From a virus, in the IMG/VR virus record IMGVR_UViG_3300028584_001241: a stretch of DNA of 64,000 bases. One strand, 5' to 3'. A model generated the notes under the pieces. The model searched no databases and had not been told where the DNA came from. It was given only the letters and a program-made list of their open reading frames with translations. The number at the start of each line of letters is the position of its first letter. The stretch's first letter is position 1. Made by a program: the position numbers and the translations under genes. Positions 17,708 through 17,874 of this stretch are shown piece after piece.

Positions 17708-17730
17708 AAAAAACGCCCATAATAGGCGTT
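17708..17730 (-). terminator. intrinsic terminator (putative attenuator 3:4 stem) upstream of proS
   Basis: Minus strand AACGCCT-ATTAT-GGGCGTT followed by T-run. Confidence 0.8.
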
Positions 17731-17757
17731 AAGGTCAATTTAAAAGTAAATAGAGTC

Positions 17758-17820
17758 TTAGCCGCCTATCATGAGCGGTAGAGGTCGAATAGTTTTGAAT
17801 AATGCAATATTAGTTTTCAT
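17758..17820 (-). CDS. putative leader peptide MKTNIALFKTIRPLPLMIGG (not in the ORF track)
   Basis: AGGA RBS, own sigma70 promoter, two Pro codons (CCT, CCG), stop just before the terminator preceding proS. Confidence 0.65.
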   Translation of the reverse strand: MKTNIALFKTIRPLPLMIGG

Positions 17821-17845
17821 TTTATGATTTCCTATATATTGACCT

Positions 17846-17874
17846 AGTATACGGTATTTTATACAATTAATCAA
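17846..17874 (-). promoter_or_regulatory. sigma70-type promoter for the leader-proS unit
   Basis: TTGATT-17 nt-TATACT on the minus strand. Confidence 0.7.

Follow-up and report, generated by a model that had tools for sequence, protein, structure and literature searches.

How a prolyl-tRNA synthetase (ProRS) gene in a virus record might be switched on and off is the question raised by the locus discussed here. The window, by which we mean the whole stretch of 64,000 nucleotides that was analyzed (IMG/VR record IMGVR_UViG_3300028584_001241), carries a proS-like gene on its minus strand. A preliminary description had claimed that a short ORF with Pro codons upstream of this gene, together with a set of alternative RNA helices, follows the logic of trpL and pheM. 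This claim is supported, mainly by comparison with homologous loci, in which the ORF, its Pro codons, the 1:2, 2:3 and 3:4 helices, the terminator and an upstream promoter are conserved. Judged from sequence comparison, the element is likely to be a ribosome-mediated (leader-peptide) transcription attenuator, and the gene that it would control encodes an auxiliary-type ProRS without an editing domain.

The proS-like gene (16509-17642, minus strand) encodes 377 amino acids comprising a class II core (PF00587) and an HGTP anticodon-binding domain (PF03129). The product scores 336.2 bits against the NCBI equivalog for bacterial ProRS (TIGR00409; cut-off 306.7). In bacterial-type ProRS, the INS editing domain sits between motifs 2 and 3. 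Alignment of the window protein to a solved bacterial ProRS yields two blocks, and about 185 residues corresponding to INS are absent between residues 218 and 225. Moreover, PF04073 was not found. The gene product is thus a ProRS of the bacterial type from which the INS editing domain is missing. Its ATG at 17642 is preceded by a Shine-Dalgarno sequence (17651-17656), and the gene is followed by a terminator hairpin (16473-16490, minus strand). This hairpin scores on the plus strand as well, and it may also end the convergent gene at 15431-16393.

Upstream of proS, and likewise on the minus strand, a sigma-70-type promoter for the putative leader-proS transcript (17846-17874) has 9 of 12 matches, with TTGATT at -35 (17874-17869), TATACT at -10 (17851-17846) and a 17-nt spacer. 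A Shine-Dalgarno sequence, AGGA (17830-17833), lies 9 nt 5′ of the ATG of a leader ORF of 20 codons plus TAA (17758-17820), whose peptide contains Arg-Pro-Leu-Pro-Leu followed by five codons to the end. Arg12 and Pro13 are encoded by CGA-CCT (17782-17787), the proposed sensing codon pair, and the second Pro codon, CCG15 (17778-17776), is included in segment 1 (CCGCT, 17774-17778). Segment 1 pairs with 17762-17766 (CCGCT:GGCGG) to form the 1:2 hairpin, which contains the CCGC:GCGG pairing that had been claimed for it. Segment 2, the 5′ strand of the antiterminator (17763-17773), lies within leader codons 16-20. Segment 3, its 3′ strand (17718-17728), corresponds to the 5′ arm and loop of the intrinsic terminator, i.e. 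the attenuator (17708-17730), which is a stem-loop of 8 pairs (17730-17712) with a T-run to 17708. The gap from this terminator to the proS ATG is 69 nt. Hence, the promoter, the AGGA, the 20-codon ORF, the Pro codons at positions 13 and 15, the terminator and proS are all present where the preliminary description had placed them.

The stretch from 16300 to 18200 has 3 terminator-like sites, compared with 0.6 expected from shuffles. The hairpin at 17730-17712 does not mark the end of an upstream minus-strand gene, because the upstream neighbor (17978-18436) is on the plus strand; on that strand the hairpin has no T-run. Proline accounts for 2.1% of the codons in the long ORFs of the window, and by our estimate roughly 6-7% of 20-codon ORFs would contain two or more of them by chance. 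Two Pro codons in 20 are thus unremarkable on their own, and the case rests on conservation among relatives.

The predicted structures in the window differ in how far they stand out from shuffled sequences. The 1:2 hairpin (-6.5 kcal/mol) is weak (z -1.9), the terminator reaches -9.4 kcal/mol (z -3.8), and the antiterminator with its enclosed spacer reaches -18.5 kcal/mol (z -6.3). The preliminary description had noted that ATAGGCG (17769-17763) is complementary to CGCCTAT (17728-17722); this 2:3 complementarity holds, but the helix is not limited to these 7 bp and extends over 11 bp (17773-17763:17728-17718). In the absence of a ribosome, the free full leader folds into one long (1+2):(3+4) stem (-28.9, z -5.9). 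The antiterminator draws on the loops of both hairpin 1:2 and the terminator, and there is no reason for the loop bases of these two hairpins to match unless the 2:3 helix matters.

Homologous loci were collected by a protein search, which gave more than 100 proteins of 360-390 residues with the same architecture as the window ProRS, and the DNA of relatives was taken from the viral collection, from Logan, JGI and ENA contigs, and from species genomes and metagenomes. Every fetched locus with a protein identity of at least about 46% has a short ORF and a terminator 5′ of the gene. Together they provide 34 distinct homologous leader ORFs, in all of which two or more Pro codons occupy the same place, and a terminator is present in all relatives. 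The leaders fall into three groups: an AT-rich group, which includes the window and is made up of metagenome contigs; a GC-rich group, found on soil contigs as well as in Paraburkholderia, Burkholderia and Cupriavidus; and a third one, which is unplaced. The N-terminal half of each peptide varies freely, also in nucleotides, with the frame staying open, and the conserved core is Arg-Pro-x-x-Pro or, in the third group, Pro-x(2-4)-Pro. In its close relatives L079 and L001, the leader ORF of the window is matched with 94-95% nucleotide identity, compared with 83-90% for proS itself. More distant INS-less ProRS genes (30-40% identity, mostly from Patescibacteria and located 3′ of an rseP-like gene) have no such leader. 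Two near-identical leaders (L102:380-492 and L176:446-552) differ in codon 3, which is TAA in the former and TAC in the latter; the early in-frame stop in L102 reflects either an assembly error or a broken leader.

As to the RNA, homologous proS loci have kept both the Pro codons and the pairing, which the preliminary description had proposed to check, and the 2:3 helix shows compensatory changes. The antiterminator reaches up to 14 bp in relatives, and the closest diverged relative has two compensatory pairs in the 2:3 helix. Sixteen AT-rich leaders were aligned with MAFFT, without fitting to any structure (alignment A4). In A4, the 14 pairs of the antiterminator are 90.6% paired, and both sides have changed in 8 of the 14 pairs (25 cells). 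None of 500 shuffles of A4 equaled the observed pairing, compensatory-cell count or covariation score, a test that overstates independence owing to the kinship within each group. Sliding the partner strand by 1-3 columns lowers the pairing to 28-61%. The 1:2 and 3:4 helices are about 90-92% paired in A4 and nearly invariant within that subset; in divergent members, all four segments vary jointly, e.g. CGCC/GGCG is replaced by GGCC/GGCC or CCATCTT/AAGGTGG.

A covariance model of the element, built on the antiterminator, has a single match in the window (86.5 bits) and none in the control loci, which are more distant proS genes. The model also picks up members outside its training set; these (L173, L174, L176 and L092) have very different letters and still form 11-13 of the 14 pairs. 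Moreover, cognate 2:3 duplexes have a mean of -12.9 kcal/mol, compared with -9.3 for non-cognate combinations. The automatic terminator picker at times took the 2:3 stem or over-long stems at GC-rich loci, and the energies for L006, L011, L012 and L097 are rough for this reason.

How could these alternative helices be coupled to proline? In the mechanism that we propose, transcription would start from the promoter at 17874-17846 and a ribosome would translate the 20-codon leader. With little charged tRNA-Pro available, this ribosome would wait with CCT13 in the A site, right after the rare CGA codon, where it would cover segment 1 and free segment 2 (here 17771-17763). Free segment 2 would pair with segment 3, which would block the terminator and let RNA polymerase enter proS. 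When Pro-tRNA is plentiful, the ribosome would reach the stop codon and cover segment 2, the 3:4 terminator would form, and the transcript would end at about 17708. Without a ribosome, segments 1 and 2 would pair either mutually or with segments 3 and 4; in both cases the stem abuts the U-run and termination would be expected.

The spacing is consistent with this mechanism. Counted from the first base of the codon in its A site, a ribosome shields about 12 nt of RNA ahead. In all three groups, 16-20 nt separate the first Pro codon from the segment 2 core, which places this core just beyond the leading edge of the ribosome, so that a stall at CCT13 would free segment 2. Columns 7-32 of A4 are without indels, and the leader stop codon has a fixed place within or directly after segment 2. 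When the window RNA is masked as far as a ribosome at codon 13 would reach (12 nt from the first base of that codon), the minimum free energy structure is the antiterminator (-15.4) and the terminator is unformed. The outcome is the same in most relatives, and in a few the masked full-length fold flips to the terminator by a small margin. The earlier suggestion that segment 2 is freed by a stall at CCT and covered once the ribosome reaches the stop codon agrees with both the spacing and the masked fold. From this geometry, we infer that the leader is translated, that the ribosome stalls within it and that the switch responds to Pro-tRNA charging.

The sensing codon is most likely CCT13, which is part of a conserved CGA-CCN pair. 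We take CCG15 as part of segment 1 and not as a sensor, because a ribosome stalled there would cover most of segment 2 and give no read-through. Since the second Pro codon overlaps segment 1, its conservation may be owed to RNA pairing. The leader of the window has only two Pro codons, far fewer regulatory codons than hisL or pheL. In this context, the codon in front of CCT13 deserves attention. Of the 29 AT-rich and GC-rich leaders, all but L165 have the sequence CGACC, as does 1 of the 5 leaders in the third group. CGA makes up 10-12% of the Arg codons in the AT-rich and GC-rich hosts (12% in the window), and a CGA-CCN pair occurs once in the 16,846 codon pairs of the window. As a pairing element, CGACC was considered and rejected: a 5-nt match in the 5′ UTR of the window is missing from the closest relative, L001, and GAC joins an extended 1:2 helix in the GC-rich group only, which rules out pairing as a general explanation. 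In the AT-rich group, CGACC is outside every helix. CGA is read by an inosine-adenine wobble, which is inefficient and slows decoding of the next codon. Given this known inefficiency, the CGA-CCN pair would slow decoding of the Pro codon and thereby sharpen the sensor, and the strict conservation of CGA hints at some factor beyond simple counting of Pro codons.

This last feature raises the question whether the same switch senses another cue. The stall could reflect an Arg-Pro nascent-peptide or codon-pair arrest acting via EF-P, the decoding of CGA by tRNA-Arg(ICG), free proline or a ribosome-targeting compound, and the element would then be a general, or a different, translation-stress sensor. 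That CGA is kept at the nucleotide level in both AT-rich and GC-rich hosts despite its low usage is in keeping with such a cue, as is the presence of only one or two usable Pro codons. Several leaders also contain Pro-Pro (Arg-Pro-Pro in Paraburkholderia, Pro-Pro before the stop elsewhere), and motifs of the Pro-Pro type need EF-P. Moreover, the Pro-codon leaders mgtL and mgtP respond to signals of this kind (PMC3641672, PMC6460261). However, conservation does not extend to Pro-Pro: the corresponding motif is Pro-Leu-Pro in the window and Pro-Gln-Ser-Pro or Pro-Leu-Leu-Pro in other leaders. Third-group leaders without Arg nevertheless retain their Pro codons, and the controlled gene is a ProRS gene, which fits sensing of Pro-tRNA best. 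For these reasons, we regard a cue other than Pro-tRNA as unlikely and favor a ribosome that waits for Pro-tRNA.

That reading presupposes that the leader is translated. An untranslated RNA switch, be it a riboswitch, a ProRS-bound site or a tRNA-binding leader, with the ORF being incidental, would draw on the alternative helices, which are the best-supported part of the element. Some synthetase genes are autoregulated through their own leaders, thrS in E. coli being an example. In addition, AGGA, GGAG or GGAA is present 5′ of the leader ATG in 15 of the 34 distinct leaders, all of the AT-rich group, and leaders of the GC-rich and third groups have no clear Shine-Dalgarno sequence. Against such a switch, the first Pro codon falls in all 34 leaders within an ORF that begins with ATG and has 12 or more codons, whereas the other two frames have 0 and 3 such ORFs. 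The stop codon is fixed beside segment 2, and the N-terminal part stays open even though its nucleotides vary. There is also no conserved unpaired core resembling a ligand pocket, and no T-box or riboswitch model matches: the T-box model (RF00230) gave no match at E values up to 10 in 15000-21000 and none in four relatives at E values up to 1, and none of the amino-acid leaders of Rfam 15 (Trp, His, Leu, Thr and Phe) or its other families match at 17700-17880. With the frame preserved in this manner, an RNA switch without translation is very improbable, and leader-peptide attenuation remains the preferred reading.

Two further observations touch on leader features. In third-group leaders, the ATG is only a few bases past a consensus promoter. 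For L090, L093, L094, L095 and L100, in which 200 nt upstream of proS were inspected, the leader ATG is about 6-30 nt past the promoter without a Shine-Dalgarno sequence, and the U-run of the terminator abuts the ribosome-binding site of proS. Third-group leaders may be leaderless mini-ORFs in which the hairpin also gates translation. Elsewhere in the window, the region 18450-18548 (minus strand) has a weak match to the Rfam Trp_leader model (19.1 bits, the gathering score being 41; E value 3.1). It overlaps the 3′ end of a 668-codon ORF and is most likely due to chance or to a plain terminator.

Attenuation also requires that the leader and proS belong to one transcription unit. Of 32 related loci, 17 have a promoter-like site with at least 10 of 12 matches at the position seen in the window, 21-38 nt 5′ of the leader ATG. 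A separate proS promoter between 17700 and 17650, which the preliminary description had named as an observation that would speak against attenuation, was looked for on the minus strand of the window, and no promoter-like site with at least 9 of 12 matches was found there. It is most unlikely that the short ORF or its RNA makes up a small gene of its own, ended by this terminator, and that proS is transcribed separately: the terminated product of ~130 nt would be a discrete RNA, and terminated attenuator RNAs such as rnTrpL can act in trans (PMC7968998), but promoters are lacking in the gap (the best site in the window has 8 of 12 matches, and 0 of 32 loci have one with at least 10 of 12 between terminator and proS), the gap from the terminator to proS is just 20-69 nt across loci, a covarying helix that competes with the terminator has no role in a plain terminator, and, of 8 Paraburkholderia genomes, 7 have the element immediately 5′ of the ProRS paralogue.

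Where the leader-ProRS pair occurs bears on what the enzyme is for. Two Paraburkholderia genomes and one Cupriavidus genome have a frame of 387 or 388 residues beside canonical ProRS frames of 578-617 residues. In Paraburkholderia and Cupriavidus, the INS-less ProRS is thus a second copy beside canonical proS, and the canonical proS in those genomes has no such leader. When 151 Paraburkholderia species genomes were searched with a model of the GC-rich leader, 8 had one copy each, which makes the pair a sporadic accessory module in this genus; in a 150-genome sample of the family, a copy is present only in the query genome. In seven of the eight, the leader is 43 nt before the ProRS paralogue, as measured to its ATG (~43 nt). 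In the eighth (L186:1501-1638, minus strand), the leader and the terminator are kept, the ProRS paralogue is missing and segment 2 is mutated; this locus looks like an orphan, decaying remnant of the leader-ProRS module.

Relatives of the AT-rich group were found only as metagenome contigs, some of them 0.45-1.86 Mb long, and none were present in the species genomes searched. The viral collection has one relative (L001), a contig of 181 kb that IMG/VR labels as a provirus with an estimated completeness of 58%. The same proS locus, with a protein identity of 95%, is present on L001 and at the very end of L080, a metagenome contig of 1,859,102 bases. Nucleotide searches of plasmids and phages with 16400-18500 gave no match, and protein searches with this region gave only distant canonical ProRS (33-42% identity). 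The window also contains a tandem array of nine tRNA-Leu genes (264-1252), whose five different anticodons include AAG, together with housekeeping-type genes for GAPDH, a thioredoxin reductase-like protein, asparagine synthase and UvdE, and many ORFs without a family.

Combining codon context and distribution, one Pro codon might suffice thanks to the rare CGA that precedes it, which would mean that bacteria naturally use an inhibitory codon pair for regulation, and the gene might be a back-up, editing-free ProRS that large AT-rich elements and some soil Burkholderiaceae turn on under starvation or inhibition of the housekeeping enzyme. We put forward this joint reading tentatively, and doubt that it will hold in all its parts.

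If leader-peptide attenuation is correct, proline and proS join the short list of synthetase genes controlled in this way (Phe, Trp, Leu and His). The conserved RNA element, which covariation supports, is absent from Rfam, and the uncharacterized family of editing-free ProRS of ~375 residues is predicted to be conditionally expressed. Since the same design is present in cultivable Paraburkholderia strains, the mechanism can be tested directly, and whether codon context tunes an attenuator could be probed in a simple way with the invariant CGA-CCN pair. With respect to novelty, a full-text search of the literature found no description of leader-peptide attenuation for proS, although papers may exist beyond the library searched. 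To this extent the novelty claimed in the preliminary description stands; it does not extend to attenuation of synthetase genes by leader peptides, which is known for other amino acids, and the surprise is smaller than first suggested. The locus presents a well-known type of switch on a gene for which we found no published example, and not a new kind of switch.

Among the known systems, leader-peptide attenuation operates on pheST in E. coli and is predicted for trpS and leuS in Streptomyces (PMC1262725). As in pheM-pheST and trpS/leuS, the leader codons discussed here specify the amino acid of the synthetase, the hairpins are of the 1:2, 2:3 and 3:4 type, and a terminator precedes the gene. 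Unlike in these systems, the amino acid is proline, the leader has two Pro codons of which probably one is sensing, within CGA-CCN, and there is no sequence similarity. Auxiliary synthetases offer a second comparison. The auxiliary synthetase gene trpRS1 of Streptomyces coelicolor is, as summarized in a citing article, switched on through ribosome-mediated attenuation when charging of the cognate tRNA falls (Vecchione and Sello 2010; PMC2897330, cited in PMC4787780). Similarly, a His leader precedes hisS paralogues in bacilli (PMC2965389). The ProRS gene resembles both in that an auxiliary synthetase copy, here the second copy in Paraburkholderia and Cupriavidus, would be under attenuation. 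It differs in that the ProRS paralogue is distinguished from the housekeeping enzyme by the loss of INS and in that a link to antibiotics or analogues is not part of the ProRS case.

Leaders with Pro codons are known for mgtA and mgtCBR (PMC3641672, PMC6460261). In mgtL and mgtP of Salmonella, as proposed here, Pro codons in the leader ORF decide the fate of the downstream transcript; the genes controlled there function in Mg2+ transport and virulence, whereas the target here is ProRS, the terminator is a canonical intrinsic one, and sequence and layout are unrelated. The proS T-box of Firmicutes likewise senses charging of tRNA-Pro and gates a terminator before proS, as we propose for the window. 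However, the leader described here, estimated at roughly 130 nt, is too short for a T-box and has neither a specifier loop nor the T-box sequence, and its sensor would be a translating ribosome. A further parallel is trpL of E. coli, which likewise has few regulatory codons (two); there, too, segment 1 is masked by a stalled ribosome and segment 2 by one that has reached the stop codon. The target of trpL is a biosynthetic operon and not a synthetase gene. Moreover, unlike in trpL, hairpins 1:2 and 3:4 are near reverse complements of each other, which allows the long (1+2):(3+4) stem to form and still to end at the U-run.
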